From NCBI GenBank assembly GCA_963797915.1, contig CAWCRG010000017.1, positions 235,074-299,073 on the forward strand: a DNA stretch of 64,000 nt, written 5' to 3'. A program made the translations under genes and the position numbers. A model generated the notes under the pieces. That model did no database searches. It saw only the letters and a list, made by a program, of their open reading frames with translations, and was not told where the DNA came from. This DNA comes from Candidatus Sericytochromatia bacterium (GTDB lineage Bacteria > Cyanobacteriota > Sericytochromatia > UBA7694). Shown piece after piece: positions 10,640 through 62,591 of this stretch; positions within the stretch are counted from its first letter, which is position 1; each line of letters opens with the position of its first letter.

Positions 10640-11176
10640 TCACTCCCCGTAAAAGTCAACTTTAAAACGGGACAGTGTGATGTCTTCATAAGGAAGTATG
10701 CCTGCCTTTTGACGGGCATAAAACACCTGTTGTTCGGCATCGATAATGCCTTCAAGCCTGGGTAAGAGTAAGCCCCGCTTACGTTGTGTACTTACAATAA
10801 CGCCATATTGAGACGGATCGAGCTCCGCCACACTTTGAATGGTTTCGGGTTCATGGAGTACCGAGACGGAGTAGTCCAGGGTTCCAAGCTCTACGGTCGA
10901 TACCGCCGGAAATCGAGGATCTTGCGTGCCTGCTGAAACCGCGTTCGCTACGACTTCTTCGAGGACGTTGGTTTGAACGGGGTGAATGGTGCCAATACAG
11001 CCCCGGAGTTCTCCCTGCTGCTTCAACGTAACAAAAACCCCTGCCTGTTGTTTCTCAAAGGTGAGCAGCTGTGGTGATAAAGCATCTGTCGGGAGTGAAA
11101 GGGGAACCCCGTGGTTTAGCGCGTGCTCAAGGGCTAGCTGAGCCAGGTCAGGCAACGTGTTTAAGGTATCTAACAT
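10640..11176 (-). CDS. AMMECR1-domain protein
   Basis: Conserved LRGCIGT motif and ~180 aa size, as in AMMECR1 / AmmeMemoRadiSam system protein A. Confidence 0.75.
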   Translation of the reverse strand: MLDTLNTLPDLAQLALEHALNHGVPLSLPTDALSPQLLTFEKQQAGVFVTLKQQGELRGCIGTIHPVQTNVLEEVVANAVSAGTQDPRFPAVSTVELGTLDYSVSVLHEPETIQSVAELDPSQYGVIVSTQRKRGLLLPRLEGIIDAEQQVFYARQKAGILPYEDITLSRFKVDFYGE

Positions 11177-11242
11177 GGCGTGTTTTTGTGTGAGTGTGTA
11201 TTGAAGGAGGGGTGTGCAATGGGATGAAAAAACGGATTCATT

Positions 11243-11413
11243 TTAATAAGCCTGGTATCGGTGGGCACGGCGCTTACGCATTTCTTGATCGGCATGTTCC
11301 GCTAATTCCTTGAGCTCCTGCATGCGTTCGTGACGCATGCGCTGGGCATAAAGGTCTTTATCAAAACGTTTTTCATGAAACTCTTGAATGACACGGTCAA
11401 AGTTGCTGGCCAT
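11243..11413 (-). CDS. Small basic helical protein (56 aa), unknown function
   Basis: Uninterrupted 57-codon ORF not in the supplied track because it is under 60 aa (MASNFDRVIQEFHEKRFDKDLYAQRMRHERMQELKELAEHADQEMRKRRAHRYQAY). It has a weak Shine-Dalgarno and sits between AMMECR1 and ferredoxin. Confidence 0.3.
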   Translation of the reverse strand: MASNFDRVIQEFHEKRFDKDLYAQRMRHERMQELKELAEHADQEMRKRRAHRYQAY

Positions 11414-11569
11414 CACTTACCCTTTACAACACTTTACTTTTAATTGTAGCTGAATTTTAAGCTTTGTGTGTGAGCTGCCTCACAGTGCTTTTTTGAAAAG
11501 CAAGAACACCGCCTCAGATCTGAGACGGTGCCTGTAAACACCTTCGAAATCGATAAGACCTGAAAAGGC

Positions 11570-11818
11570 TTATTCGAAGTATTCTGCGTTGGTGGCGATG
11601 AATGACTCATCCTCTTCGGGCACATCTTCTTCAGGGAAGATAGCTTCTACAGGACAGACAGGTGCACAGGCACCGCAGTCGATGCATTCATCAGGATTAA
11701 TATAATACTGGGGTGCATCATCATCAGAGTGGATACAGTCTACGGGACAGACTTCGACACATGCTGAATCTTTGGTTTCAATACAAGCTGATGTAATAAT
11801 ATAGGCCATTGCGTTCAT
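11570..11818 (-). CDS. fdxA: 7Fe-type ferredoxin (FdxA-like), 2 Cys clusters
   Basis: Two cluster motifs, C-x2-D-x2-C-x3-CP-like (SACIETKDSACVEVCPVDC) and CIDCGACAPVCPV, in an ~80 aa acidic protein. Confidence 0.75.
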   Translation of the reverse strand: MNAMAYIITSACIETKDSACVEVCPVDCIHSDDDAPQYYINPDECIDCGACAPVCPVEAIFPEEDVPEEDESFIATNAEYFE

Positions 11819-11906
11819 TCTCCTTGCTGTGTTTGGCTTGGGACGTGAATATCATACCATCCCTTATAGGAGATGTGCGTAAAAGCGATTATTTTTTGGC
11901 TCTTTT

Positions 11907-23682: not shown

Positions 23683-25805
23683 ATGAAAATCAAACGTTTT
23701 TTCGGAGCTGTTTTAGCTTTTAGTCTGACATTACCCGCCCATGCGGAGTTTCCTAAAAATTGGTATGTGGAAGGTGTCCGAGACTTTCTGAACGGTGCGC
23801 TGGTGTCCACCGCCATTCAGTCCGACGGCTCGTTAACCCTCAGCTCAGCCTTTCAAGAACGTAATCAGCTATCCGCCAGCAATATTTTAGACGCGGTCCC
23901 TCTGAATGCAACAGAAATGCTGGTGGCCACCGCTAAGCCGGGTGCTGCTATGCTTGTGCGTCTTGGCGACTCTGGCAGTGAGAAAAAACTCTTAGAAGTC
24001 CCCCAGGGCTTTGTTTCTGCGGTGGCAAAAGGCAAAGACGGCGCCCTGTACGCTGCCAGTGCGCCCGATGGCCGCATTTATAAAGGCGATAAAACTGGCC
24101 TAAAGCCTCTTTTTCAGAGCCGAAGAAAAATACATTTGGGATCTTTTGCCCGCCAAAGACGGTCAGCTCTACTTTACCACCGGCAATCGGGGGGCTTTTT
24201 ATCGCCTGAATGGCGATAAGGCCGAACTATTGTATGAATCGAAAGAAAGCAATCTTCGCGCGCTTTACGAAGATGCTCACTGGGGCATGGTGTTCGGCGG
24301 CGGCAGTCGCGGTATTGTCTATCAGTATGAGCGCAAAGACAAAGTGCGGGCGCTTTTAGACGGCTGCCTTTGATGAGGTTACCGCCATCACCGGCAACGG
24401 TAAAGGCGACCTTTATGTGGCCTTAAACCGTTCTAAAGCCGACAAAAATCGTGCCAAAAGTGCGATATACCGTATTGATAAAAAGGGGCACTCAGAACTG
24501 CTGTTTCCCCTCGACAGCGAAACTGCCAATACGCTGGCCTTAAATAAATCCGGTGACCTGTTTGTGGGCACTGGTGACGCCGGCCGTATTTATAAAATCA
24601 CGCATCCTGAAAACCCTGAAGTGCGTGAGTTGAGTTTGGCCACCCGTTCTGTATCGGATCAGGTCTCTCGTTTAATCGCTTCCGCGAGTAATGACGGTTT
24701 TCTTAGCTTTGGCAGTAGTCCTGCGCGTATTGACCGCTATGAAGGTGGCTTTCAACGCACCGGCATTTATGAAAGCGACATTATGGGTACCGGTATCTCG
24801 GCCTCGTGGGGGTTAATGCGCTTACAAGCCGTGGCGCCTTCCGGCACTCAGATTCTGGTGTCTACCCGTACCGGCAATACCGCCACGCCCGATAACACCT
24901 GGAGTGACTGGAGCGCTGCAAAAAGCGGCACCGAGGTGCCGATTACCTCACCGGCAGGCCGGTTTTTACAGGCCAAGTTTGAGCTCAGGAGCAATAGTGC
25001 GAATCAAACCCCTCAGCTCAAGAGCTTTGAGGTCAACTTTGTACGCGACAACTTAGCGCCCATTATTCACGAGGTTTACTTTTTAGATCGCGGTATTTTC
25101 TTTAAGCCCCACACCTTTGGTAAGCCCGAAGCCCCACGCATTGTGCAGCTAGACCAGCGTTTCTTACAGGGCTTACGTCAACCCCGCAGTACCGAAGCGG
25201 TGTACTCAGAAATGCTCGAAGAAAAAACCGGCGGCGATGTGCGTATGCTGCAAGAGTATAAGCAAGGCATGTTAACCGTGGCGTGGGACAGCGAAGATCG
25301 CAATGAAGATCGCGTCAGCTATGATGTCTATTATCAGGTCTATGGGCAATCTGAGTGGGTGCCGCTGGCCAAAGATCTCAACGCTTCAGTCTACTCTTTT
25401 GACTCCAGTACTCTTTCTGATGGCACCTACCGCTTTCGCGTTTATGTGAGCGATGCTCTGTCCAACCCTGGAGACGGCTACCGGGTCTACCGTGATAGCG
25501 AGTTAATTACCATCGATAACACCGCACCGGTGGTCAGTAATTTACAGGCCCAGGTTAAGGCTGACGGGGTAGCCGTGAGTTTTAGCGCCAAAGATCAGTT
25601 GTCGGCTCTGGCCTATGTAGAAACGCTTTTAGATGGTCAGGGGAGTGAGTTTGTACAGTCTGTAGATAAAATTATCGATGGCCGCGAAGAGCGCTTTTCT
25701 TTTAATCTCAAGCGTCCAGCCAAAGGCAGTCATATGTTGGTGGTGAAAACCACCGATCGGATGGGGAACACCTCTACCCATCGCGTGAGTTTTGACGTGC
25801 GATGA
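23683..25805 (+). CDS. Secreted beta-propeller-repeat protein with C-terminal FN3/Ig-like domains (two frameshifts)
   Basis: Signal peptide MKIKRFFGAVLAFSLTLPAHA and recurring G-x-(I/L)Y blade-like motifs. Three ORFs (23683-24219, 24146-24373, 24417-25805) form one protein. The shifts lie near 24105 (A-run) and near 24365. The C-terminus resembles fibronectin III / Ig-like beta sandwiches. Confidence 0.5.
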
Positions 25806-26224
25806 GTCAGACGCAACCCGTGAACCCGGCTACTAACCCGTCAATGAACGCTGTGCATGTTCAGAATTTAGCAATGTCTGACTTTACGGCATTCGGAGCG
25901 ACTGCTGAAGAGCTCGTTGCCTACGCCCTTGATGATATCGGGGTGTTGGCCACGGATACCCTCATCAATGGTGAGCAAGCTCGCCCTCTGGTGGAGAGCT
26001 TTTATAATAAACGCCAACAGGTGCGTCGCAGTACGCGCCTGGGTAATCTTTTGATTCAGAGCGGGGTGATTACCCGCGAGCAGTTAATTGAGGCGCTAAG
26101 TTGTCATGTTACCCGTGAAGTCCCCTTAGGAGAAGCTTTGATTTTACTTTCTTTCTGCACCCAGGAACAACTGGATGCAACCTTATCTCAACAAGCAGAA
26201 ATGCGACGTCGTTTAAACCCTTAA
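25802..26224 (+). CDS. Small MshEN / T2SS-E N-terminal-like domain protein
   Basis: Two tandem RLG-x-LL-x-G-x-I-x-x-EQL-x-EAL-like half motifs (RLGNLLIQSGVITREQLIEALS...LGEALILLSFCTQEQLDATLSQQ). In MshE this domain binds c-di-GMP. The start overlaps the upstream stop (ATGA). Confidence 0.45.
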   Translation: MSQTQPVNPATNPSMNAVHVQNLAMSDFTAFGATAEELVAYALDDIGVLATDTLINGEQARPLVESFYNKRQQVRRSTRLGNLLIQSGVITREQLIEALSCHVTREVPLGEALILLSFCTQEQLDATLSQQAEMRRRLNP

Positions 26225-29200
26225 TGCTTACATTACACTTAAGTTATATTCACCCCCACTTCGTTTTCTGGGCCGAGACCGCTCTACCCACCCCTCAACC
26301 CGAAGGACATTACCCTTACCAGGCCCGCCGTCAGGAACTCTGGAACGTTCTCAAAGCGCTAGGTATTGCACATCAGCCGCGCATGCTCAAAGAAGAACAT
26401 GCCCGCTTGTGGGTTCCGGCTACCCCTCAGGGACCCACAAGCAGCACCACAGGAAGCGTGGCCACCAAATCCTCACTTACCTTACAGACCTGGGCCATTG
26501 AGGGCGTACGTTTGCCCGGAGGTAAGGTCTTAGACTGGCTCAACGATGACGCCGCGCTACAAGACGCCGAAAAATGGTCGATGGGCGTAGAAATGAAAGG
26601 TTGGCAACGGCTGTATCATCTGGCGCTCAGCCTGGTTCGCCGTCAGCAGTTACTGCCTGATATTGAGCAAATTGACCAGGAGTGGTTTGCCCGCTGGCAG
26701 CCGCTGCTACAGCAAGAAGATCATTTGGTGGTCGCAGAACTACAGCAACATATGCCCGAAGTGGTTCAGGCGCTGAATTATGACGAAGAACAAGCGCCTT
26801 TTTCTCAGCTGCGTCATGTGCTTTTACAGGCCCTTGGCCGTCTCACGGACACGCTGGTGCGTCGCGATAATGTGGGGGAGAGTTTTCACCCCGTAAAGTC
26901 CCTGAGCTCAGTGTCGAAGCCCGCTGGACCGAAGCGTTGCGTCGCCGGAATGGTCTAATTCAGGGTGTTGAACCCGAGTTTGTTATTTTTCGTCGCCATA
27001 TTCAACGCTGGACACGCCCTTTGCGGGTGATGGCCGAAGCACCTTTTCAACTGGTTTTTCAGTTAGAAGAACCCACCGAAACTTCAGAATCCTGGTTCGT
27101 ACGCTTGCTTTTACATTCTCGCGAAGAGCCTGATTTATACGTTCCTATTGAGGTCATGCATAGCGAAGATCGTCCGGCGATTTTAAAAACCCTAAATTGG
27201 CCCCTTGAAGTGTTTGTCAACGATGCCCTTGAGCAGGCTGCACTGCGTATTCCTGAGTTGGGCGTACAGTTGATGAGAGCCCATTCAGGTCTTGAGCTAC
27301 AGCCCGCGCAAGTGGAATACTTTTTGATGCAGGCCCCTGCCTTAGAGCAAAACGGCTTTGGTATGCGTTTGCCCGCCTGGTGGCTGGAAGAAAGCACACC
27401 CATTAAGGGGCAGGTAAGGGTGAGGCCTTTAGACGATAGCCCCCGAAATCAGGGACATATCTCGCTGAACACCTTGCTCCATGCCGACTGGGATCTGATG
27501 TTGGGTGATCACCCCATCAGCTTTGCTGAACTCAAGGGACTGGCAGAACTGAAGTCTCCCCTGGTCAATTGGCGCGGGCGTTGGTTAAAGGTTTCCCCCG
27601 AAGATATGAAGCGAGCGCTGAGTTTGTGGCGTCATGGTAAACCCAAGCATATGGCATTGCGTGATGTGCTCTTGCTGGGGCCACAGGGAGAACACGCGCC
27701 CTTTGAGATTACCTCGGTCGAAGTGCAGGGCTGGTTGGCCGACTTTTTGGCTGAACTCAGAGGCGAGCGAGATATTGCAGATATTCAACCACCCATTGGC
27801 TTTACGGGAACCTTGCGTCATTATCAGCAGCGCGGTCTGAATTGGTTGGCCTTTTTGTGCGGTCATGGTTTAGGCGGCTGTCTGGCGGACGATATGGGTC
27901 TGGGTAAAACCATTCAAACCCTGGCGCTAATGCAGTACTTTTATGAGAACGGTGAAATTCAGCCCAGCTTATTGGTGTGCCCCACGTCTTTACTTGATAA
28001 CTGGCGGCGCGAGGCCAATCGCTTTGTGCCCGAAATACCGGTTAAAATTCACCACGGTTCTCAGCGGGATCAGGGCGAAGACTTTATTGCAAAGGTTCCT
28101 CCTGCGGGTTTAGTGATTACCTCTTACGCGCTCTTGCACCGCGACGCCGAGTTTTTATCTCAGGTAAAATGGGCGGGCCTGATTTTAGATGAGGCGCAAA
28201 ACATTAAAAATGCCCAGACCAAGCAATCGCAGACGGCCCGTGAGCTGCCTTCGCGCTGGAAGCTCGCCTTAACAGGTACGCCCGTAGAAAACCACGTGGG
28301 CGATCTCTGGACCCTGATGGACTTTTTAAACCAGGGCTTGCTGGGGTCTCGCAGAGCCTTTAAAACTCTTTTCTTAACTCCTATTCAGCGCTGGCAAGAC
28401 AAGCATGCGCTGCGACAACTCCATCACCTCACGGCTCCTTTTATTTTAAGGCGCTTAAAAACAGATCCCACCATTGTGCCGGATCTGCCCGAAAAGCAGG
28501 AAAGCAAGACCTACTGTACGCTCACGATAGAGCAAGCCGCGCTCTATTCAGCCACCGTTGACGGTATTGAAGAACAATTGGCGGAGCTCGACGGCATGGC
28601 CCGTCGCGGTTTGGTGCTGGCTTCTTTGAGTAAGCTCAAACAAATCTGTAATCACCCGTCTCATTTTCTCAAGGAGCCCGGGCCTTTGTCGGGGCGTTCG
28701 GGCAAGTTAAACCGTCTTGAAGAGATGCTCGAAGAGGTTTTGGCCGGTGACGAAAAAGCGCTGGTCTTTACTCAGTTTGCCGAAATGGGTAAGCTTTTAC
28801 AGAAGTTCTTAAGTCAACGCTTTGAGCAAGATGTTTTCTTTCTCCATGGTGGAACACCCCGTCAGCGGCGGACTGAAATGGTGGAGAATTTCCAGGCCGA
28901 TAAAACGCCCGCTATTTTTGTGTTAAGTTTAAAAGCTGGGGGTACCGGTTTGAACCTAACCGCTGCCAATCACGTCTTCCACTACGACCGTTGGTGGAAC
29001 CCCGCTGTAGAGAATCAGGCCACCGACCGGGCTTACCGCATTGGCCAAACCCGAAATGTACAGGTTCATAAACTGGTGTGCAGTGGAACGTTAGAGGAAC
29101 GCATTGACGATATGTTGAGTGAAAAACAACAGCTGGCCGAACAAATTGTCGGCAGTGGTGAAAACTGGATTACTGAGCTGAGTGATGACGAGTTGCGCAC

Positions 29201-29237
29201 ATTGTTCCGTCTTAGCGCAGACCTGGTGACCGGCTAA
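26224..29237 (+). CDS. SNF2-family helicase (RapA/HepA-like) with N-terminal accessory domain; frameshift in a G5 run near 26874
   Basis: DEAH-box helicase motifs LADDMGLGKT, DEAQNIKN and LTGTPVENHVGDLW, plus C-terminal helicase motifs LKAGGTGLNLTAANHV and QATDRAYRIGQ. ORFs 26224-26958 and 26937-29237 are one gene split by a single-base indel. Starts via TAATG overlap. Confidence 0.8.
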
Positions 29238-30079
29238 TGGCTATGCCTATTCAGAGTTTTGGTCGTCGGTGGTGGTCAAGACAGTGGTTATCTCGGATTA
29301 CGCAATTAGAGCCCGATCGCATGATGCGGGGTGAAGTTTACGCCCGCCAGGGTAACGTGAAAGACTTTCAGATCAAAGACAATTGCGTGACCGCTGAGGT
29401 GCGCGGTACCCGCATTACCCCTTATGAGGTTTCAGTGATTTTTGCGCCTTACCCCCGTGGGCAACAATTATTGGTTCAGCAGCTCGTGCAAAACCATGCA
29501 GAAGCGGTCAAAACCGATATTCCTTTAGAGTGGCAACAGCGCTTTGAAGAAGCCGAGACACACTTTTTTCCTGATCCTGAAACCCATATGAGTATGGACT
29601 GCTCCTGCCCGGACTACACGATTCCCTGTAAGCATATGGCCGCCGTATGCTGCTTGCTGGCAGAATTTATGGACGCTGACCCACTGCTCTTATTTAAGCT
29701 TCAGGGCGTCGAAGTTGAAGAGCCGATGCATCAGCCGCTGTCTACGCTGCCTGAAGTGCCCTTACGGCAACAACCCCATGAATACTGGGGGATTAAGCGC
29801 ATTTATGAGACGGAAATTATTGACGAAGCCAAGGCCTCGCCGTTGGGCAGCTTAGATGCCATGCCGGGTCGTATTTCTCGTAAGCGCCTTCATGAAGCCC
29901 TTGCGCCTGTGTACCAAAAAGCGGCAGTACACGCCCAGGCTTTGCTGCAGCATATGCGCCGTAACTTTGACGAAGTTGATTTTAGCGAAGAAACTCCGGC
30001 AGTAGATAGCCCTGATATGAAAGAGACGGCTATAGAAGCCGTCCCTACTTCCCCTACAGAAGACAAATCTACCGCTTAG
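29237..30079 (+). CDS. SWIM zinc-finger protein
   Basis: C-x-C-x(n)-C-x-H SWIM signature CSCPDYTIPCKHMAAV. Translationally coupled to the SNF2 gene (TAATG). Confidence 0.75.
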   Translation: MAMPIQSFGRRWWSRQWLSRITQLEPDRMMRGEVYARQGNVKDFQIKDNCVTAEVRGTRITPYEVSVIFAPYPRGQQLLVQQLVQNHAEAVKTDIPLEWQQRFEEAETHFFPDPETHMSMDCSCPDYTIPCKHMAAVCCLLAEFMDADPLLLFKLQGVEVEEPMHQPLSTLPEVPLRQQPHEYWGIKRIYETEIIDEAKASPLGSLDAMPGRISRKRLHEALAPVYQKAAVHAQALLQHMRRNFDEVDFSEETPAVDSPDMKETAIEAVPTSPTEDKSTA

Positions 30080-30086
30080 GAATTCA

Positions 30087-30806
30087 TTAGGGATTTAACG
30101 TCGCTCGGCATAGAATCGTATTGTCGGTTTCTAAATCGCTTCCCCAAATCAATTTGGCTTTTGTATTCCAGGTAATTTCGTCATAACCGTCTTTAGGACT
30201 CACCTGATTGACGCTATATTCTTTGGCGTTAGGCCATTGGCTATCGTCAAAGTCGGCATTTTTCCAGCCTTCGGGTTCGTTGGTACTGGTAAACCCACAT
30301 TTACCACTCCCGGCCATAGGATTTGTCTCTTGTTCACAGCCTTTGTCTAAGGGAGCCTGGTGAATGACCAGACATTTCCATTCTGCCGTCGAAAAAGCCA
30401 CACCTTCCTGGGTGTCAGTACGGGTAAACTGAGCGATAAAGCCACCATCTCCCATTTGCTGTCGGTTCGAGCCAATATACTCTAATCCGGAATCGTTTTC
30501 TTTAAAGTCTTTTAACATAAAGGCCATTTGCACCGGCTGATCGGCCTGAAAGTAAAAGGTTTCTTGATTGAACGATCGCTCGGTGGTGATCGGAACACTG
30601 TCTTCCTTGACTAACTGACCATCTACGTACATAGAAAACCAATTGTCTGCCCAGACTTCTGCTTTGATGTTCCCACTTTGGGTTTGTGTTGTTGCTGTGG
30701 TGCTTGAGGTAGAGCCTGCCTGGCTTGGCTCAGCTGTTGCACAGCCCGTGAGCCCGATGAGTGAGAAGAGCAGGGCAAGGCCTGTGTGTTGCAATTGCTT
30801 TTTCAT
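30087..30806 (-). CDS. Secreted lipoprotein, unknown function
   Basis: Signal peptide with lipobox LTGC when started at MKKQLQH (30806), 4 nt after the upstream YHYH gene stop. It has a Ser/Thr-rich linker and a Cys-containing globular region. Confidence 0.45.
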   Translation of the reverse strand: MKKQLQHTGLALLFSLIGLTGCATAEPSQAGSTSSTTATTQTQSGNIKAEVWADNWFSMYVDGQLVKEDSVPITTERSFNQETFYFQADQPVQMAFMLKDFKENDSGLEYIGSNRQQMGDGGFIAQFTRTDTQEGVAFSTAEWKCLVIHQAPLDKGCEQETNPMAGSGKCGFTSTNEPEGWKNADFDDSQWPNAKEYSVNQVSPKDGYDEITWNTKAKLIWGSDLETDNTILCRATLNP

Positions 30807-30810
30807 GTGT

Positions 30811-31992
30811 TTATCTCCGTTGATATGTTTCTGTTTTGCGGGTGCCGTCTGGCGATACAAAGGTAAAGGTGTATTGGCCTGCATCGTTCCAACTATAATC
30901 CACAGTATACTTTTGATCGTTTACAGTGTATTCAAGGGAGTAAGCGTGAGTTCCTGTGGTTTTGAAGTCAGTTATTGTCGCGCCATTTAGAGGTTGCAAA
31001 AAGTCTCGCACACCCATGGTTCGTGGTTGGGGAGTGATTTCATCATCCGGGGACTTTGTGACCTTTCCTCGCATTTTACCGATCATATAGGGGTATTCGG
31101 TGATTCCGTGATAATGATAACTTCCCTGCTCGTCAAAGTGACCGTTATTTTCGTCTAAAGTACGCATTGCGCTTCCGTCAGGCTCTTTGCTTCCGTAGAC
31201 AGCAAAGCCATCCAGGGCATAGGCTATAGGCTCATTCCCCACTATTGCTTCAAGGTGTAAGGGAGCCGTATGATAGTGGTAATCGTCGGCTCGGCCGGCA
31301 TGACCCCCCCATTGATCTAACTCTCCTACCAGGAAGGCATCATCACCTCTATTATTGAGGGCATTAAAAATGGGAATGCCGTTGGCAGCGACACCGATTC
31401 CGCCTCTAAAAAAATTGTTTTTTGTTGAGACAGGACTCTCAGACAAAACGGGCTGTATGGGAATACTCCATGCGTTGTTTCCGACATAGTTTTGATCGAT
31501 GGCAACCTGTTGCTGCCAACTGGTAATACCGACCATCATATTGTGTTCAGGAATGCCCTCTGATTCAACATAGAAATAGGTGTCATCAGATCTTGTTTTT
31601 ACGTTGCTAAACGCTCCAAAGGTTTTTTGAAGGACGTTAATGTCAGAGGGTACGGCTTGTTCACCGGTTTGTGAAACGGTATTGGCTGGCGTACAAGCAA
31701 TATATGCAACCGGTAGGCTCATGGCTACTAATGCGGTGCGGGTGAGTTTAGATGTTTTAAATTGAGTAACGACAACGCCTAAACCTGAAAGAAGCAAAAC
31801 AGCAAACAAGGCTTGGGTATCAGTACTTTTTTCTGGCGGGACTGTTGTGAGGGATTTAGGGGGGGTAAAATCATGAGAAGGTTCTGCGGGAGAGTATCCT
31901 ACAGGGGAGTGTCCCTCTTTGTGAGCCATACTTTCTAAAGAGTAGCTTGAGCAGATGAAGAAGCAAGTTAGAAACAAGAGGTTTTTCCACAT
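30811..31992 (-). CDS. YHYH-domain secreted protein
   Basis: Two copies of the signature (DYHYHTAP and SYHYHGITEYPY) characteristic of the YHYH family (PF14240). It has two consecutive signal-like hydrophobic segments, so the true start may be internal (lipobox VAYIAC). Confidence 0.6.
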   Translation of the reverse strand: MWKNLLFLTCFFICSSYSLESMAHKEGHSPVGYSPAEPSHDFTPPKSLTTVPPEKSTDTQALFAVLLLSGLGVVVTQFKTSKLTRTALVAMSLPVAYIACTPANTVSQTGEQAVPSDINVLQKTFGAFSNVKTRSDDTYFYVESEGIPEHNMMVGITSWQQQVAIDQNYVGNNAWSIPIQPVLSESPVSTKNNFFRGGIGVAANGIPIFNALNNRGDDAFLVGELDQWGGHAGRADDYHYHTAPLHLEAIVGNEPIAYALDGFAVYGSKEPDGSAMRTLDENNGHFDEQGSYHYHGITEYPYMIGKMRGKVTKSPDDEITPQPRTMGVRDFLQPLNGATITDFKTTGTHAYSLEYTVNDQKYTVDYSWNDAGQYTFTFVSPDGTRKTETYQRR

Positions 31993-32033
31993 GGTGTTCG
32001 GGTTCTTTCTATAATAGGATAACGAGGCGAAGG

Positions 32034-32627
32034 TCAGTTAATAAAGCGAATGTGGGCAGATCCCAACGTGGTATCTTCGATGGCCTGTGTTAAGGTCTCC
32101 CAGGTCACGTCCTGCCGATCTTGATCTCCCAGATCAGGCGCAGAACTGAGTGCATAGACGGTAATTGTATAAGTGTGGGTGCCTCCACCAGCAGGTGAGC
32201 AGGGAGGCGTGTATCCCGTGGTTCTTCCGTCTTTATCACTGCCTTCGGTTCCAATGGATTGAGGATTGCCCTCTTCAAGGGTTCTTAAGTCACCGGGAAG
32301 GTTCCACAGCAGCCAGTATTGGCTGGGGTTATTGACTCCCGCGCGCGTTCCCATAGGGTAATGATGCATGATGACGGCAAAACTTTTTGTCCCCTCAGGC
32401 GGTGTGCCCCAGACAAGGGGCGGAGAATTTCCACTTCCACCGTCCCGTTGGCATTTAAGTGTGTCAGGTAAGGGTTGCTGATCCACGAGTAAGGAACTGC
32501 TCAGGGCAAAGTCGTTTGTTGCAGTCGCAACAGTTTCTGTCAGATTGCCTGAACTCACCGTGTTACAGCTTGACATAATCATGCTCAAGGAAAGAGCTCG
32601 TAATGTTTTTTGGAGGGTAGCGTACAT
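32034..32627 (-). CDS. YbhB/YbcL-family PEBP (Raf kinase inhibitor-like) lipoprotein
   Basis: PEBP motifs PPLVWGTPPEGTKSFAVIMHH, GYTPPCSPAGGGTHTYTITVYAL and an N-terminal lipobox MSSC. Confidence 0.65.
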   Translation of the reverse strand: MYATLQKTLRALSLSMIMSSCNTVSSGNLTETVATATNDFALSSSLLVDQQPLPDTLKCQRDGGSGNSPPLVWGTPPEGTKSFAVIMHHYPMGTRAGVNNPSQYWLLWNLPGDLRTLEEGNPQSIGTEGSDKDGRTTGYTPPCSPAGGGTHTYTITVYALSSAPDLGDQDRQDVTWETLTQAIEDTTLGSAHIRFIN

Positions 32628-32744
32628 AAACGACTATCTTTTTTCTCTTTCTTTCTTGGGTTTTATACCGAATCTTTTTTAGTTTAAAACGTATTTATGA
32701 ACCCAATACTGTCATTATGTAAATGAATTGTAAAGAGGCGGGTC

Positions 32745-32773
32745 TTGACGACTTTCATTTTTTTGTCTACGTT
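32745..32773 (+). promoter_or_regulatory. Candidate sigma70 promoter for the YHYH lipoprotein gene (-35 TTGACG, 17 nt, -10 TACGTT)
   Basis: Read directly: TTGACG at 32745-32750, a 17 nt spacer, then TACGTT. It lies ~90 nt upstream of the 32865 start in an AT-rich divergent intergenic region. Confidence 0.25.
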
Positions 32774-32864
32774 TTACTTCTTATCAAAAGCTTCATGCTG
32801 AGCTTCAAAGCATGCAGTAAGTGCCACACTTCCCTCCTTTAAAAATGCTAGAAAGAAACCCTTT

Positions 32865-33864
32865 ATGAATAAACGAACGAAATATGCCCTGTTTTTGAGC
32901 CTCTGTGGAGGACTTTTAGGTTGCGCCCCTCCCACTGATACGCAAGAAACGGCAGAGCAAACACAGGCGGTTGCTGACGCCAAAGACATTACTAACACTT
33001 TCTTTAGTGAGAGAAGTGCAAACTGTGCGGTGCATGTGGCAGCTTACAAATCACAAGCCAAGGACATCAATGAAAATGTGGTGTTTTACGGTTTAGCTAA
33101 TATTACTGTGGCCAATGGCAAATGTCTGTTTTCTGCCAATGCCATTCCCAATCATGACTTTAACGATGCTTCAAGAGGCTTTCCCAAACCCTGTGTCTGA
33201 GCAAAGTCAGCGTTATGAGGTTTCTGCAAGTCCACAAAAAGCAGCGACAGCCACCCCGCTGACTTTGCAATACGACAATGCTGTTATGCTCAATGGCGTG
33301 AAATTAGATCTACTGGCTGCAGGTTGCTTTGGCGTCGGAGATGGAAGAATCGGCTGTAACGATATGAGTCAAGCCTGGCGCTATGATCCTATGGCTGAAA
33401 ATGCCAACTTCGTCACCGATTCTCACAATGCCCACGCCCAGCCTGACGGGACCTACCATTATCACGGGGATCCCAGAGCGCTATACCCTACCGATAGCTC
33501 TAAGGAGTCTCCCGTGATTGGTTTTGCAGCGGACGGCTTTCCTATCTTTGGTCCGTTTATTGAAGCCGATGGTAGCATTCGGCGAGCAAAATCGAGTTAT
33601 CAGCTCAAGTCAGGTGCCCGTCCCACTGGAAACGGTAGCCCTGGTGGCAACTACGACGGCACCTTTATCGATGACTTTGAATTCCTTGCGGGCTCTGGAG
33701 ATCTTGATGAGTGCAACGGCATGGAAAAAGACGGCGCCTATGGTTATTACATCACGGAAAGCTATCCCCACGTGATGGGTTGTTTTAAAGGCACGCCCGA
33801 TGCTTCTTTTCAAAAAGGTGGCGGTGCTCCTAATCAGGCTGGCGGTCCACCTCCACGGCGATAG
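32865..33864 (+). CDS. YHYH-domain lipoprotein (frameshift in A-run near 33170)
   Basis: Lipobox LGC signal peptide. ORFs 32865-33200 and 33115-33864 join if one A is removed from cccaaaccct. The YHYH signature is DGTYHYHGDP. It is a paralogue of the divergently oriented 30811-31992 gene. Confidence 0.6.
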
Positions 33865-33976
33865 GATTCGTTTGTTTTACCCTTTACTTTTCTTGTGGCA
33901 AGCGTGACTTCTCTCTTTGTATATTGTAAAATAAATAAAAATATTTTACCTTGCGATAAGGAGTTTATTAAAATCC

Positions 33977-35369
33977 ATGTTGAAAAGAGTATTCATTCAG
34001 GCCTTGCTGGTGACAGGTCTTGCACCCCTGAGTGGGTGCTTTTTCTTTATGGAGCAAGCAGCAAAGTTTCGGATCGAGTTGTCTCAGGATAGTAAAATGC
34101 GCTTATCGCAAGCAGAGCTAAATCAGCGTTTACAAGAGGCTTATAAAAAGAGAGATGCTGATGATATAAAAAAATGGGTTGACCGGGGAGCTGATTTAAG
34201 ATCTTGAAGGTTGATACGCAGACGGCGTTTTTACTTTACGCTCTTGTGGGTAATTTGGAGAAAGTAAAGTCCTTAAAAGAACAAGGTGCCGACATAAATT
34301 TTAAAAGCAAGTTGGGTAATACACCATTAATGAGTGCTGTTGATGGTGGCTCGTTTGAAGTTGTGCAATACCTGGTGGAGCAGGGGGCCGATGTTAATGC
34401 AAAGGGTGCTTGTGGGAGTATGCCAATAATAAAAGCCGCTTTCACAAGATCTTTACCGATAGTAAAATATTTAGTTAGTCAGGGAGCCAATGTTAATTCT
34501 CAAGATGCTTGTGGCGTAACTGCATTGCTTAACAGTAGTTTTTGAGGTTCGATTGAGCAGGTCAAGTTTTTTATAGAGCATGGTGCCGATGTTAACGCAA
34601 AAACGCTTTCGAAGGCAGTAATCTTTTTTTTCACGCATCTTCTAGTGGTTCACTCAAGTTAGTGAAGATGATGGTCGCAAAGGGTTACGAGGTAAACGTC
34701 AGGAATAATTACCATGCAACGCCGCTGATGGAAGCTGTTTCTAGTGGCTTGGTAGAGCAAATCAAATATTTGGTCGAGCATCACGGCGCTGACGTTAATG
34801 CTAAAAACAAGCAGGGCACGACGATCTTATTAGCAGCTAACTCGGAGGAAATTGTTGAGTATTTGGTTAGATCATGGTGCTGATGTGAATGCGAAAGACA
34901 AGTCAGGAACAACCTTATTGCTGAAGGCAACTCGCACAGGATCAGTGGGTCAGGCTAAGTATTTGGTTGAGCAGGGCGCTTACCTTAATGTGCAAGATAA
35001 TGTTTTAAAAAAATGTTCTTATGTATACAGTGTCGTTGATTTGGAATTAGTGAAACATCTTGTAGAGACATGGTGCTGATGTAAATCTTTGCGAAAGACA
35101 TCGATGAAAACGCTATTGATGGAAGCTGCTGCGATCGGCTCGCTCGGAAATAGTTAAGTCATTTGTTAGAGCATGGTGCTAATGTTACATGAGAAAGATC
35201 TGTTTGGCCAGACTGCTTTACTGATGAAGCCGTAGATTCGCGACTGCGTTCCCTGGAATTGGTCAGATGTGTGCGATAGAGCATGGTGCTGATATATAAT
35301 GCGAGAGGTCTGAGTCAGGTGCAAACCGCGCTAGATATAGCTATCGAACGTAGGAAATCGAAGAAATAA
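33977..35369 (+). pseudogene. Decayed ankyrin-repeat lipoprotein gene (at least 6 frameshifts / premature stops)
   Basis: N-terminal lipobox LSGC, then at least seven 33-aa ankyrin repeats with the consensus GADVNAKD-G-TPLM-A---G--E-VKYLVEHGA. The reading frame hops at 34207/34204, ~34545-34640 (T8 run), ~34872, ~35060, ~35085, ~35175, ~35205 and ~35300. Several breaks fall at the same repeat position (LVE|HGAD). A- and T-richer than the flanks. Confidence 0.7.
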
Positions 35370-35406
35370 TCAATTATCTTCAAAGCAGCTGCAAGGCAAT
35401 AAGTCT

Positions 35407-36375
35407 CTAGCGTTGACCCGCCGCTTGCAATTGAGAAGGAGCCATAGTCGCAGGAGCCATCAGTACGCCCACTGCTCTGGCAGGAGCCGCTGTGTTAGAA
35501 CCATACATATCAAAGGGTGAGTTACCAACGCCTTGAGAAGGACTTTGAAAAATAGGGTTGCTGATGGCATCACCAGGAATAATCGGTGTGGAAACGGGAC
35601 TATTATAAGGATTGGTGTTCACCGGGGTATTCATGTCGTTGTGATTGGCTGGTGCGTTGGCGTTGAGTTGTTGCCAGCTCAGGGCGGCACCCTGATTGGT
35701 GGGGCTGGCACCGTCTTCGGTGACGCTGGCAATTGAGGCATAATCTTTAGGAGCAGCTTTGGCTTCTAATGCGCCACGTAAAGCACCGTAGGCGGCTAAA
35801 ACGCCAATACCGGCTAAACCGCTAATCGCCGCGATTTTTATGCCGCCAATAATAGCTGAAGCTCCACCGCCAGCACTCGCTGCGATGCTCATGGTTCCAC
35901 CTGCTGCTGCACCACTGGCCGCCAAAGAAGCGCCAATGGCACCGATTTTTTGAGATTCTTGCCACAGTTTATAAAGGCCCAGTCCGGCTGCGCCTACGGC
36001 TGCGGCACCCATGGCTGTGGGGCCTACGCGGGTAATCATGCTGCCAATCGACTTGCGTACAAAATCGATACCGTTATTGAGTTCGTCTAAAGCACCGCGA
36101 CCGGCACCTTCTAGCATTGAGTTTACTTCGTCGTCGTAGGTAATAATGTCGGCTTGTACACCATTGAACATCACAGCGGGAATTGCGTTTTTACGCAGGT
36201 CGCCCAGCTCTAAAGAGTCACCATAGGCAACAAAATATTGACCATTGGATTTGAAGTAAACTTCATCCAAGCCATTTTTTTTGGTTTTTTGAGTGGCTTG
36301 CTCTACGGTAATACCAGGCCGCAGAGCTCTGACGCCCTGGACCGCGATGGATTTGCTGTTGATAGAAATGTTCAT
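35407..36375 (-). CDS. Glycine-zipper membrane-active protein, paralogue A (unknown family)
   Basis: A 110-aa N-terminal domain (MNISINSKSIAVQGVRALRPGI...) is shared at ~70% identity with 36479-37339. It is followed by a Gly/Ala-rich hydrophobic region full of GxxxG/AxxxA zippers and a Pro/Ser/Asn-rich tail. No Sec signal peptide. Confidence 0.55.
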   Translation of the reverse strand: MNISINSKSIAVQGVRALRPGITVEQATQKTKKNGLDEVYFKSNGQYFVAYGDSLELGDLRKNAIPAVMFNGVQADIITYDDEVNSMLEGAGRGALDELNNGIDFVRKSIGSMITRVGPTAMGAAAVGAAGLGLYKLWQESQKIGAIGASLAASGAAAGGTMSIAASAGGGASAIIGGIKIAAISGLAGIGVLAAYGALRGALEAKAAPKDYASIASVTEDGASPTNQGAALSWQQLNANAPANHNDMNTPVNTNPYNSPVSTPIIPGDAISNPIFQSPSQGVGNSPFDMYGSNTAAPARAVGVLMAPATMAPSQLQAAGQR

Positions 36376-36478: not shown

Positions 36479-37339
36479 TTAACGCCTCAATAAACGCGGA
36501 TCCATTAAGGTTTGAGAGCGGGTAGCGGATCCAGACGCTGAAACGCTTACACCAAAGCCAATTCCGATCCCTGAGTTGCTGTCGTTATCGGGAGCGGGTA
36601 CAGCAGAAGGAGGTTGAGATGAAGGGCTGTCCTGGCCGTTAAGTTGTTGCCAGCTCAGAGCCGCTCCCCCATTCGCGGGTGCTGAACCGTCAGCACTAAT
36701 GCTGGCAATAGAGGCATAATCCTTGGCGTTGGCTTTGGCTTCAAAGGCTCCTTTAAGGGCGCCGTAAGCGGCTAATATACCGGCTCCGGCAAGGCCTGCG
36801 AGAGCAGTGATTTTTAAACCGTTTAAAAACTGGGACACGGGAATACCCTTTGCTGCGGTCTGTAGTGTTTTTTGACCCGTTTGAGCGACCATTGCACTGC
36901 CAATTGCTGCCCCTTGTGAGCGCTTCCATAGGGTGTACACGCCAAGACCTACACCGCCGACGGCAGCTACGCCCAAAACCGTGGGGCCCACATTACCCAA
37001 TATATTGCTCACCGAAGTTCTGACAAAGCTGACGGCGTTACCCAGCTCATCCAGAGCGCCGCGATAGGCACCTTCGGCGACGGAGTTGGCTTCATCATCA
37101 AAAGCCAACATATCAGCCTGAAGGCCATTGAACATAAGAGCCGGGATCTCATTTTTTTTGAGTTTGCTGATATTAATAGCGTCTCCATAGGCAACATAAG
37201 CACGACCATTGGCCTTGAAGAACACTTCATCCAAACCATTTTTCTTGGTCTTTTGGATGGCCTGCTCAATAGAAATACCGGGGCGGAGTTCTCTCACGCC
37301 CTGGACGGCAATCGATTGTTGATTAATACTTATGTTCAT
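36479..37339 (-). CDS. Glycine-zipper membrane-active protein, paralogue B (unknown family)
   Basis: Tandem duplicate of 35407-36375 with a conserved N-domain and glycine-zipper segment and a divergent C-tail. It has a similar upstream motif (cttgcttaa-aaagg-ttaa). Confidence 0.55.
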   Translation of the reverse strand: MNISINQQSIAVQGVRELRPGISIEQAIQKTKKNGLDEVFFKANGRAYVAYGDAINISKLKKNEIPALMFNGLQADMLAFDDEANSVAEGAYRGALDELGNAVSFVRTSVSNILGNVGPTVLGVAAVGGVGLGVYTLWKRSQGAAIGSAMVAQTGQKTLQTAAKGIPVSQFLNGLKITALAGLAGAGILAAYGALKGAFEAKANAKDYASIASISADGSAPANGGAALSWQQLNGQDSPSSQPPSAVPAPDNDSNSGIGIGFGVSVSASGSATRSQTLMDPRLLRR

Positions 37340-47646: not shown

Positions 47647-49071
47647 ATGCACAATCAGTCAGCTGTACCCGTCGCGGGCCGTTATGCCATACTCCAACAA
47701 GTAGGGCAAGGCGGAGCTGCGACCGTTTTTCAGGCTCTGGATATGCAAACCCATCAAAAGGTCGTGCTCAAGTTTTTAAACTTACCTCAGCACGGTCCTG
47801 ATGAAGTCCGCCAATTGGCGCTTGATCGCTTTCGCCAGGAGCATCAGATTCTACGGCTCTTGGATCACCCTCATATTGTTCAGGTTTTAGATTATCTCGA
47901 AGGTGACGATCAGTATTGTCTGGTGATCGAATGGATCGATGGCGTGACCCTGGATGATTATATGCGCGTTAATCCGCCCATGCCCGCGTCGGTTTTACCG
48001 ATGATGGATCAGGCCTGTGAAGCCTTAGAGTATATGCATGCTCGCGGCATTATTCATCGGGATATTAAGCCTGAAAACATAATGATTACCGCTGAGGGAA
48101 ATATTAAAATTTTAGACTTTGGTTTGGCGCGTCTCATGGGTCAAAGCGACGGAGAGTCCGGCCTCGGTGGCATGGCGGGCACTGTTGCCTATATGGCACC
48201 GGAGCTTCTGAAAAACCAAAACAGCACCGATCCGCAGAGCGATCTTTACGCTTTGGGAGTGACCTTTTATGAGCTTTTAACGGGGCGCGTTCCTTACCCT
48301 GGAGAGGATCCCGGGTCAACCATTTATGCCATTATGAATCAGGATCCCCCGCCACCTATTGATTTTAATCCCATGATTGGCGCCGATCTGAATCAACTGG
48401 TGCTGACGTGTATACATAAGCTCCCTCAGCACCGCTTTGCGCACTCTCGTCAGCTCCAGCAACTGCTGCGTATTCTGGCGAAACGGGTTTTTTACGCCGG
48501 TGCTGACCCAATGTTGGCCATGCAGTCGGTGTTGCCTCCCCTTCACTCCTTTACGCATTTTGGTTTAGTTGACGAACTGCATAATGCGGTACATCGTCAT
48601 GAGAATGGACAGTTCCTGGTGTGGAATGCCTCCGAACAGGGAGGTATCTGGATGCAAAACGGAAATATTTTACATGCAGATATTAAGAATAAAAATCTGG
48701 ACAGCCTCGAAATCCTGATGACTATTCTCTCCTGGGAGAGCGGTAATTTTATGCATATTGCGAGTGCCCAGGTGCCTCAGACCACCATTCGCCAAAATGC
48801 CTTCAAATTGATTGAACAAGCGGACGCCTATCTGGTGGAGTATAAAATGCTCTGGGAGATGTATCGGGATATTGATATTCTTGAGCAAATTATGCGTCCT
48901 GGTGTGCACGACAATCTTCCGGAACTCTCTCTTTACATTATCGATGTTTTATCCACGCCCAAGCGGGTGGGAGAATTGGCTGCTGAGTTACCCATTTCTC
49001 GCAGACAGTTACTGGAGTCTATTAAAGCCCTTGAAGATCGCCAGTTTATTTTTGTGGAGCGAGAGCGCTAG
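47647..49071 (+). CDS. Ser/Thr protein kinase with C-terminal DUF4388 (PATAN-like) domain
   Basis: Hanks kinase motifs (VLK, HRDIKPEN, DFG, APE) in the first 270 aa. The C-terminal ~150 aa match the DUF4388 pattern (G-x-FLVWN, ILHADI, SLEILMTILSWESGNF). Confidence 0.75.
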   Translation: MHNQSAVPVAGRYAILQQVGQGGAATVFQALDMQTHQKVVLKFLNLPQHGPDEVRQLALDRFRQEHQILRLLDHPHIVQVLDYLEGDDQYCLVIEWIDGVTLDDYMRVNPPMPASVLPMMDQACEALEYMHARGIIHRDIKPENIMITAEGNIKILDFGLARLMGQSDGESGLGGMAGTVAYMAPELLKNQNSTDPQSDLYALGVTFYELLTGRVPYPGEDPGSTIYAIMNQDPPPPIDFNPMIGADLNQLVLTCIHKLPQHRFAHSRQLQQLLRILAKRVFYAGADPMLAMQSVLPPLHSFTHFGLVDELHNAVHRHENGQFLVWNASEQGGIWMQNGNILHADIKNKNLDSLEILMTILSWESGNFMHIASAQVPQTTIRQNAFKLIEQADAYLVEYKMLWEMYRDIDILEQIMRPGVHDNLPELSLYIIDVLSTPKRVGELAAELPISRRQLLESIKALEDRQFIFVERER

Positions 49072-49072
49072 T

Positions 49073-50646
49073 TCGGGTTTTGTAATAATTGAAGGTAGCG
49101 GTACTGAAAGGGTTCATGATCGGGAAACGTCATGAGTACTTCTTTTAACTGAGTGAGCTCTAGCTCCGGCTCCATAGGTAAGTGAAAACGCAGTTCGGCA
49201 ATTTTAAGGGAGATCGGATTTAAACTGTAAGCGATCTCAATATTGCGCTGCTTTTCTTTCAGGGGTACATCTTCTGTCTGATCCGCAAACAGACTCCAAA
49301 GTCCGTAGGGAAGCCACCAATCCGGGGCTGCTGTCTGGGCTGATTTTAGACTGGCTAACGCCCATTTTTGTTCACCGGCTATCCATAATTTCCAGGCCTG
49401 TATGACTTTTTTTTCGGCTCCGTCCTGGATTTCTTTTTCGGTATTTAGCCACAGCTTCTGTGTGCTTAAATCAGGCGTCTTGTACCAGGGGTGCTCAAAA
49501 AAACCGTACCAGAAGCCTTCTATACTTTGTTCTGTCGCCTTTTCTAAGGTGGGTAGTAACGCGGTTGGACGTTGTGTCTCAGCCCATACCGAAAGCCTTC
49601 GCCAGGGGTAGGGTTCCTCAGCAGATAAAGCGAGCTTTTGCCAGGGCGTAGAATCGGCTCACCTTTTTTTGTGCTTGTTTCATTTGCGAGGCTTGTAGTT
49701 GGTACTCCGCATATTCAGGAAAAATCTGATGGGCGCGCGTAAAAGCTGACTCGGCTTGCTCCCACTGATGATTGAGCTGATGATAAGTACCTAAAGCCTG
49801 ATAGGCACTGTCGGTATTGATCCCGCTGAGCTGCCAGTTTTGAAGGGTCGATAAATACCCCGCGGTGGTGCACACTTCTGCTGCTTTAAGATAACAGTCA
49901 AAATAGCGTTGACTTTCGCTAAAACCAATCACCCGATACACTTCGGGGTAGTCCTTGGCCAGCTGCTTTAAAGCGGTTCTGTTTTCTTGATACGCCGTTT
50001 CATGATTCTTTTGATAAAGCCAGGTTAACATTTGCCTGGCGTTAAACATATGTTCTGGGTAGGTCGCCAATTTTTCAAGGGCGGGAATCGCTGCTTCGCT
50101 ATTTTTCTGGGCCAAATAAATAAGGCTTTGTAAGTACAGGCTTTCTGCTGGGGGTAAGCTTTCTTGTTGTAATTGCTCACTGTGAAATAAAGCCTCTTCA
50201 AAGCGTTGCTCTCTGAGCAGGGCCGTAGCCAATTTGAGGCGAACGCCAGACCAGCCGGGCTGGTAAGCCAATGCCTGCACATAGGCAGCAATCGCAGGCG
50301 CAAAGTCCTGTTGCTCAAAGTAAATGTCGCCCAGGCCGCTGCGTAAGCGCGCCTGGAGAGCCTCTTCTGGTAGGAGTCTTAGGCCCGCTTTGTAGGCCTG
50401 ATATGCTCCCAGAAGATCCTGCTGTTGGTAAAGGCTGACGCCCAGTGCAAACCAAATTTCTGCGTTATCAGCCTCGTTTTGTAGGGCCTGACGAAACTTT
50501 TCGGTAGCCAATGGAAAATGCCGCTGCCTGAGCAGTTGCAAGCCTTCTTTATAATAACGCTCTGTACTCTCCGCAATGCCTGCCAGGGTAGCTGCTCCCA
50601 ACACGACACCACAACAAACGGCCAGGAGCCCGCGCTTTACGCTCAC
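49073..50646 (-). CDS. TPR-repeat protein with N-terminal signal peptide; probable frameshift near 49630 joining a 180-codon start-less open frame
   Basis: ORF 49618-50646 encodes a secreted TPR protein. Directly downstream, a 180-codon frame (49073-49614) is open with no ATG/GTG/TTG for ~100 codons. Deleting one A from gcaaaagct fuses the two. Confidence 0.5.
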
Positions 50647-62170: not shown

Positions 62171-62591
62171 TTACCAGCTTCCCTGGTTTTTCATGGTGCT
62201 CCAGGGCGCCTGAGGAGGCAGGGAGGCTCCGATTTGTAAGAGCTCTACCGAGGCCCCGTCGGGAGACTGAACAAAAGCCATATGGCCGTCTCTGGGCGGT
62301 CTTAAAATAGCGATGCCCGCTGATTGTAGGGTTGAGCAGGTGTCGTAAATATTTTCAACCCCAAAGGCCAGGTGGCCAAAGAAGCGCCCCGTGTCGTAGG
62401 GTTCTGTATTGTCCCAGTTATGGGTAAGCTCTAAAATAGGCTCCTCAGGGGTTGGGCCTAGAAACACCAGGGTGAAGCGACCTGTATGTGCTTTCTTTGC
62501 GGCTAATTTCTACAAGGCCCAGGTTTTTGACATAGAAGTCGAGGGCTGCGTCCAGGTCTTTAACGCGCAGCATGGTGTGTAAATACTTCAA
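62171..62591 (-). pseudogene. gloA: Lactoylglutathione lyase (glyoxalase I), single-base frameshift near 62478
   Basis: The N-terminal half ([33 protein letters not shown]) and the C-terminal half ([22 protein letters not shown]...[10 protein letters not shown]) are both recognisable as GloA but lie in different frames, with 4 nt where 3 are expected. A possible TTG start overlaps the phaR stop (TTGA). Confidence 0.6.

Follow-up and report, generated by a model that had tools for sequence, protein, structure and literature searches.

Pseudomonas aeruginosa AnkB is one example of an ankyrin-repeat protein residing in the periplasm or envelope of Gram-negative bacteria. Another is Rickettsia RARP-1, which was long presumed to be secreted but is in fact periplasmic (bioRxiv 10.1101/2022.02.23.481736). 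Ankyrin proteins are enriched among symbionts, yet they also occur in free-living bacteria, where they are sometimes abundant (PMC3932732). The type IV secreted Dot/Icm Ank effectors of Legionella and Coxiella (AnkY, AnkH, AnkX, and others) likewise carry ankyrin repeats; they often vary between strains and have often been acquired horizontally. Here, we describe a 64,000-nt stretch from a Candidatus Sericytochromatia bacterium (contig CAWCRG010000017.1, positions 235,074–299,073; hereafter the window), in which a gene for an ankyrin-repeat lipoprotein at window positions 33977–35402 (plus strand) is interrupted by 15 frame changes and one in-frame stop codon. An intact orthologue is present on a 16.4-kb Logan contig of a related Sericytochromatia bacterium (L014, run SRR26831686). 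We attribute most of the breaks, with a probability of roughly 0.6, to errors of the consensus where the assembly is locally of low quality. False pseudogenes arising from indel errors have been documented in long-read assemblies (PMC12007338).

According to the three-frame translation, the gene product begins with a lipobox signal peptide and an N-terminal cap, followed by 12 ankyrin repeats (R1–R12), which are spread over all three frames. The repeats are units of ~33 residues with the pattern TPLH...G..E.V..LL..GADVN. The stitched conceptual protein of 484 residues belongs to the ankyrin-repeat families PF00023 and PF12796, matching Pfam Ank with E = 1e-56 (186 bits, cut-off 21.1) and Ank_2 with E = 1e-55 (186 bits). 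The initial annotation, made from the letters alone, had recognised the lipobox and at least seven repeats and placed the start of the locus correctly, but it let the locus end at 35369, whereas the gene runs 33 nt further. The elements of the gene are as follows.

33958–33963, plus strand: Shine-Dalgarno-like AAGGAG, 13 nt 5' of the ATG, from the sequence
33977–34039, plus strand: lipoprotein signal peptide MLKRVFIQALLVTGLAPLSG/C, from the translation; the lipidated Cys is codon 21
34028–34039, plus strand: lipobox LSGC (LAPLSG/C), from the translation
34040–34212, plus strand: N-terminal linker and capping helices, from the L014 alignment
34213–35402, plus strand: ankyrin repeats R1–R12, read over three frames, from the profile dynamic programme and Pfam
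35400–35402, plus strand: original stop TAA; the product ends in AARQ, that of L014 in AAKQ

The signal peptide reads MLKR-VFIQALLVTGLAP-LSG/C and, with the motif judged by eye, combines the basic n-region, the hydrophobic h-region, and the lipobox ([LVI][ASTVI][GAS]C near residues 15–25) of a lipoprotein. Promoter-like hexamers at 33904–33932 and 33945–33974 occur at chance level (4 sites against 5.3 expected in the promoter scan). Rfam gave no match in the region, and a reading as non-coding RNA was rejected on this ground.

To place the breaks, we compared the DNA, by a frameshift-aware dynamic programme, with an ankyrin profile of 33 columns that we had derived from 1217 repeats found in database homologues. 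The best path, which holds for a broad span of frameshift penalties, contains frame changes at ~34198, 34604, 34866, 35068, 35087, 35106, 35146, 35162, 35187, 35227, 35274, 35297, 35351, 35358, and 35387. The at least six breaks counted initially were therefore an understatement. The lesions are listed below.

34198–34199, plus strand: frameshift 1, one G lost (window TTA-AGATC against L014 TTAGAGATC, i.e., TTA[G]AGATC), from the orthologue alignment
34543–34545, plus strand: in-frame TGA in repeat 4, the sole stop on the reconstructed reading path
34599–34606, plus strand: frameshift 2, −1 within an A5 run; no other break coincides with a homopolymer of at least 5 nt
34860–35390, plus strand: cluster of 13 frameshifts, ~24 per kb, from the dynamic programme and manual reading
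Cluster, first part, plus strand, types inferred: ~34866 (+1), ~35068 (+1), ~35087 (+4, CTTT), ~35106 (+1 or −2)
Cluster, middle, plus strand, types inferred: ~35146 (+1), ~35162 (+1), ~35187 (+1), ~35227 (−1)
Cluster, end, plus strand: ~35274 (+2, TG), ~35297 (+1), 35351 (+1, T), 35358 (+1, T), 35387/8 (−2)

Insertions prevail over deletions (11 against 4 of the 15), as had been noticed before, and the lesions measure 1–4 nt. The inferred indels sum to +10 nt and leave 1416 nt, or 472 codons, from ATG to TAA, which is internally consistent. Their distribution is uneven: of the breaks, two fall in the first 880 nt, together with the stop, and 13 in the last 540 nt. Although the gene contains 11 homopolymers of at least 5 nt, a single break of the 15 falls in one of them, and the frame is kept through the A7, T8, and A7 runs. 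Where the orthologue permits a check, the inserted bases are non-templated (CG[T]AGG, AAA[T]CG). The remaining 62.6 kb of the window holds five frameshifts; at that rate, the Poisson probability of at least 15 in this gene is ~5e-27. An error motif linked to GATC methylation was discarded on inspection, as only 2–4 of the 15 breaks lie near GATC.

Comparison with orthologous loci, a check suggested at the outset, revealed the intact gene. We reached L014 through the 90% cluster of the neighbouring YHYH protein, of which it carries the full-length 337-residue version. At the ankyrin position (11127–13034), L014 has an open gene of 635 residues with 17 repeats (Pfam Ank, E = 1.5e-114), five more than the window gene. 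The signal peptide, linker, first repeats, and C terminus are as in the window, and the gene order matches. Of the 21 signal-peptide residues, 3 differ, none of them in the hydrophobic core or the lipobox, and the linkers differ by a net −3 nt at ~34037–34050 (−1 and −2, 8 nt apart), which keeps the frame overall. Nucleotides 1–423 of the two genes are ~95% identical, after which, within repeat 3, the identity falls sharply to ~65%; over the last 82 nt it recovers to 88%. R1–R3 correspond to R1–R3 of L014, and R6–R12 are roughly collinear with its R10–R14, R16, and R17 at 40–50% protein identity, with the ankyrin consensus kept in both genes. Four breaks, namely those at 34198, 35351, and 35358 and the 2-nt loss after 35387, are confirmed against L014 as derived. 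The window gene is thus disrupted relative to an intact orthologue.

Homology searches had missed this orthologue because it is absent from the protein collection (exact look-up); it is also without a precomputed Pfam match, though its contig neighbour is present in the collection. A search with the stitched protein returned generic ankyrin proteins only, at no more than 44% identity, and the N-terminal 141 residues gave no match. Giant ankyrin proteins dominated the comparison of 34596–34880 with protein representatives, among which a near-identical match was not found. Structure matches in the PDB were generic ankyrin or DARPin repeats only. The exact-protein look-up recorded the 76-residue stub of the deposited gene solely from the source genome, and look-ups of this region in Logan assemblies gave no match.

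The spectrum of lesions, rather than their mere presence, bears on the question of decay or error. Scored against the ankyrin profile, the 3' repeats of the corrected path reach 86 per 99 nt, compared with 94 for the functional repeats of L014. We simulated decay by mutating the functional orthologue in silico and re-running the same dynamic programme, which gave the following scores per 99 nt.

13 random indels alone: 88.7 ± 2.2
13 indels and 2% substitutions: 82.6
13 indels and 5% substitutions: 73
13 indels and 10% substitutions: 59

Stop codons arose in most simulated runs at 2% substitutions and in nearly all at 10% or more, whereas the corrected path shows none in the 3' 600 nt. The corrected 3' repeats score like functional ones burdened with indels alone. 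The scores and the missing stops therefore limit the substitutions to at most about one per indel. In bacteria, base substitutions outnumber spontaneous indels about fivefold (regression in PMC4978911), and an indel-to-substitution ratio of 0.35 is regarded as unusually high (PMC8717266). Substitutions and stops in proportion to the indels, as relaxed constraint would leave them, are not seen in the gene. Because the background synonymous divergence (dS) between the window and L014 is saturated (1.5–2.6 in core and left-hand cluster genes) and the repeats nevertheless keep the full ankyrin consensus, the gene must have been constrained until very recently.

Similar frameshifts hit other genes of the window, several of them strongly conserved. 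Apart from the second YHYH gene next to the ankyrin gene, three genes are affected.

23683–25805, plus strand: conserved gene for a secreted 707-residue protein with Ig-like domains, split into three frames by two +1 insertions
26224–29237, plus strand: SNF2-family helicase, split at a G5 run (26874–26878) where G6 is expected
62174–62590, minus strand: glyoxalase I gene gloA, split by one extra C at 62488

The insertions in the 707-residue gene lie at 24118 and 24362 (CAG[A]GCC, GAC[G]GCT), and its protein is 81–92% identical to those of L014 and of L002, one of four loci retrieved through hemA (L002–L005). The SNF2 helicase is a single open reading frame (ORF) of ~1003–1026 residues in L014 and L002, with a C-terminal part 97% identical to the L014 protein; L015, a contig of a 99.75%-identical strain (run ERR12040027), stops inside the G-run. 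An extra T at 33180 (TT to TTT) disrupts the second YHYH gene, the 337-residue version of which is intact in L014. None of these four genes contains a nonsense mutation, and the isolated frameshifts amount to ~1 per 12 kb. For gloA, we looked up nine possible one-base corrections as exact proteins. One of them was found exactly, a 139-residue protein on contig L016 from the Logan run ERR12040027. Over 2553 nt, L016 and the window share 99.4% identity, with the additional C of gloA as the sole indel; two further contigs of the same run are 99.75–99.84% identical to the window and free of indels. A 196-codon open frame without Pfam match at 49071–49658 (minus strand) overlaps, in another frame, the 3' end of a TPR gene (49618–50646) and may mark a further frameshift. 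By contrast, the overlapping ORFs 30087–30884 and 30811–31992, once suspected of a frameshift, are two separate genes, and several other overlapping ORF pairs in the window also proved to be distinct genes.

Several observations lead us to favour consensus errors as the source of most breaks. The orthologue is intact and has the matching signal peptide, N and C termini, and gene order. The lesions are nearly all indels, with 15 frameshifts to one stop, and their spectrum is unlike slippage, with its insertion excess, spared long homopolymers, and non-templated insertions. Like lesions hit conserved genes elsewhere in the window, and a 99.4–99.8%-identical independent assembly (ERR12040027) has gloA intact. 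The deposited contig would accordingly carry residual single-base indel errors at the background rate given above, and the 3' part of this internally repetitive, strain-hypervariable, lower-G+C gene would lie in a patch where quality is locally low. Low depth, gap filling with raw single-molecule reads, or mis-polishing with reads of other repeats, strains, or alleles could produce such a patch. The clearest case of probably technical lesions is the set of 13 breaks within the final 540 nt. The true gene is probably intact or carries a few real lesions at most; candidates are the missing G at 34198, the TGA codon at 34543, and the −1 shift at ~34604.

The false pseudogenes of long-read assemblies (PMC12007338) offer the closest parallel: they too are dominated by frameshifts, lack other signs of decay, and affect conserved genes as well, and one lesion of the window, that in gloA, is absent from the assembly of a near-identical strain. 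They differ in that typical nanopore errors are homopolymer deletions, whereas those of the window are non-homopolymer insertions, and in the extreme clustering of the window lesions over 540 nt, for which a local cause is needed.

Further points weigh against consensus errors, beginning with the fact that we infer the technical origin of the lesions. The breaks are ~180-fold concentrated in one dispensable gene and ~300-fold in its 3' cluster, and they stop within ~20 nt of the gene end. The accessory YHYH neighbour is also broken, and a sulfatase gene of L014 is missing in the window; real erosion of an accessory cluster would look alike. The two breaks in the single 707-residue gene resemble gene-wise relaxation. 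In the 5' part, three lesions in 0.9 kb, including a substitution-type stop, are well above background and fall in sequence that is otherwise 95% conserved. The long homopolymers are correct, unlike in the commonest nanopore error, so that raw-read gap filling or mis-polishing has to be invoked. Finally, the Logan strain differs from the window by 0.2–0.6% single-nucleotide polymorphisms, and the difference in gloA could be a real strain-specific mutation.

A genuine pseudogene, in which the accessory cluster erodes in this lineage through real small indels that struck the 3' part first, is possible but clearly less probable than consensus error. Its product would be at most the 76-residue lipoprotein stub. 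The intact orthologue marks the breaks as derived, the lesions are limited to the ankyrin gene and end at its stop, and one nonsense codon is present. The broken YHYH neighbour, the absent sulfatase, and the five fewer repeats also agree with erosion, and the 5'-to-3' gradient fits a progressive C-terminal erosion of a repeat protein. The accessory pseudogenes of bacteria erode with a deletion bias. The window gene resembles them as a dispensable member of a variable cluster that is disrupted relative to an intact orthologue, but it is insertion-biased, is almost without substitutional decay, and has one stop for 15 frameshifts. Real decay would need at least 13 indels in 540 nt with no more than ~2% substitutions and no stop, and an 11:4 excess of mostly non-templated insertions that spared the A7, T8, and A7 runs. 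Such a spectrum is unlike known spontaneous mutation (PMC4978911, PMC8717266), and comparable single-base frameshifts also hit strongly conserved genes of the window. The decay proposed by the initial annotation is doubtful, since the spectrum fits consensus error better.

It is unlikely that both explanations apply in turn, i.e., that one to three 5' lesions (34198, 34543, ~34604) made a recent real pseudogene and the 3' cluster is technical. These 5' lesions lie within sequence otherwise 95% identical to L014 and are of another kind than those of the cluster, comprising a deletion, a substitution, and a −1 in a homopolymer, and the anomalous spectrum is confined to the cluster. The two classes are, however, inseparable at the sequence level, and the isolated frameshifts elsewhere show that single lesions can be technical too.

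We regard it as improbable that all frameshifts are real and reflect a lineage with a localised, insertion-biased indel process independent of slippage, which would have placed 13 hits in 540 nt of the 3' half of a hypervariable repeat gene almost without substitutions and, in addition, scattered single-base insertions over conserved genes. If true, this would imply a new mechanism of mutation or repair, such as error-prone processing where a repeat array recombines actively, or a lineage in which selection is strongly relaxed.

Unequal recombination or slippage between repeat units, raised by the initial annotation as an alternative to decay, and programmed frameshifting or phase variation are effectively excluded: some breaks do lie near the conserved CATGGTGCTGATGT motif common to four repeats, but the repeats are just 60–83% identical over 35–40 nt, Tandem Repeats Finder detected no tandem array, whole-unit events would alter the length by ~99 nt and keep the frame in place of 1–4-nt lesions, 15 shifts of mixed sign are beyond any known recoding signal, and neither slippery sites nor long simple-sequence tracts mark the gene as recoded or phase-variable, none of the 15 breaks falling at such a tract. 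The recurrence of breaks at one position of the repeat unit (LVE/HGADVNA), also noted initially, is only weakly borne out. When 13 breaks were placed in the profile run over 34201–35402, six fell just before HGAD or just after GADV, with P ~0.04 against a simulated null for classes defined post hoc, and we do not take this as a strong signal.

Whichever of these accounts applies to its lesions, the gene belongs to an accessory cluster. In L002 and L004, the two closest of the hemA loci, an SNF2 helicase, a SWIM gene, two tandem glycine-rich paralogues convergent with SWIM, and hemA follow one another, and the stops of SWIM and paralogue A either overlap or lie 23 nt from each other. The window is collinear with both save for an extra 5.3 kb at the junction of SWIM and paralogue A; this block is absent from L002 and L004 and present at the matching junction in L014. 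Being present in two lineages and absent in two, the 5.3-kb block is accessory. Besides the ankyrin gene, it comprises the following.

~30080–35406, no strand assigned: accessory cluster between the convergent core genes SWIM (29237–30079) and paralogue A (35407–36375)
30087–30806, minus strand: 239-residue lipoprotein
30811–31992, minus strand: YHYH protein (Pfam)
32034–32627, minus strand: PEBP/YbhB-like protein (Pfam)
32865–33864, plus strand: second YHYH protein (Pfam), frameshifted at 33180
33650–34400, no strand assigned: high-identity tract, 95–96% identical to L014, dS 0.07, ending abruptly inside repeat 3

All five cluster genes of the window bear export signals. In L014, four of the five neighbours of the ankyrin gene have a Sec or lipoprotein signal, YHYH1 having a plain signal peptide. 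L014 also carries, at 8585–9961, a gene for a 458-residue sulfatase between PEBP and YHYH, which is missing at the corresponding site of the window (32628–32864). The TAA of the ankyrin gene sits 4 nt from the stop of convergent paralogue A. The exact-protein look-up gave no match for paralogues A and B, PEBP, both YHYH ORFs, SWIM, or nine further fragments.

The lower G+C content noticed initially is confirmed. The ankyrin gene has a G+C of 0.42 and a third-position G+C (GC3) of 0.40 (z about −4.5), compared with 0.504 ± 0.024 and 0.523 ± 0.027 for 46 core ORFs, and the GC3 of the other cluster genes ranges from 0.41 to 0.50. The composition of the L014 cluster matches that of its own lower-G+C host. 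Since the intact orthologue also has a G+C of 0.42, the low value is intrinsic and not a product of decay. The high-identity tract crosses the intergenic promoter region, and beyond it the identity falls to ~65%. Against the saturated background dS, this tract points to recent recombination between the lineages of the window and L014, and from the alignments the locus has the appearance of a hot spot for exchange between lineages. For paralogue A, dS relative to L014 is likewise reduced (0.54).

We found no integrase, transposase, or tRNA in or beside 30080–35406, where short repeats are at chance level. Of the horizontally acquired islet proposed initially, the presence/absence polymorphism, the deviating composition, and the gene flow hold, but the signatures of mobility are lacking. 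Nor do the glycine-zipper paralogues belong to it, as had been supposed. These two tandem glycine/alanine-rich genes (35407–36375 and 36479–37339, minus strand) are 54% identical to each other and have no match in Pfam or NCBIfam. Glycine-rich paralogues are conserved directly upstream of hemA in all four loci fetched through it and are single-copy in the more distant L003 and L005; they are core genes outside the islet. In the window, hemA lies 2.2 kb downstream of the ankyrin gene, and its four closest relatives come from metagenome-assembled genomes of Candidatus Sericytochromatia (56–75% identity). The hemA-based scan of genome contigs disclosed no ankyrin gene at the loci retrieved, and a metagenome scan with the paralogue alignment gave distant relatives only (≤50% identity), none of them close to an ankyrin gene.

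The signal peptide would direct Sec export of the ankyrin protein, the lipobox Cys would be lipid-modified and anchor it in the envelope, and the solenoid of 12–17 repeats would present a variable binding surface. We infer that the lipoprotein probably serves as a protein-binding scaffold beside the co-clustered exported YHYH and PEBP-like proteins and, in L014, the sulfatase. Fusions of YHYH and sulfatase domains occur in other bacteria and hint at a functional link; by analogy, they suggest that the two functions are connected here. Envelope ankyrin proteins of the RARP-1/AnkB type resemble the predicted protein in having an N-terminal export signal, in staying in the envelope, and in their presumed role as interaction scaffolds. 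They share with it only the generic repeat, however, and differ from its lipobox, its 12 repeats (17 in L014), and its hypervariable central array.

The secreted effector envisaged by the initial annotation finds no support in the data. The NCBIfam models of Dot/Icm Ank effectors scored 37–107 bits against cut-offs of 450–1400, the best being AnkY with 106.9 bits against 600, and no secretion-system genes were noticed among the ORFs of the 64-kb window. Dot/Icm effectors are marked by a C-terminal translocation signal, whereas the window protein carries a predicted cleavable lipoprotein signal, and the data retrieved give no sign of a host-associated lineage. A literature search on ankyrin proteins in Sericytochromatia found nothing.

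The locus is in either case an ordinary ankyrin lipoprotein gene or its pseudogene. What appeared to be a spectacular effector pseudogene is most probably an ordinary gene for an exported lipoprotein with assembly damage, which calls for caution. Without checks at the read level, pseudogene counts, inferences of genome decay, and effector predictions for this genome are unreliable. For the Sericytochromatia, the comparison reveals a variable envelope gene cluster with YHYH, PEBP-like, sulfatase, and ankyrin lipoprotein genes, of which the ankyrin gene combines a hypervariable central repeat array with evidence of recent recombination between lineages.

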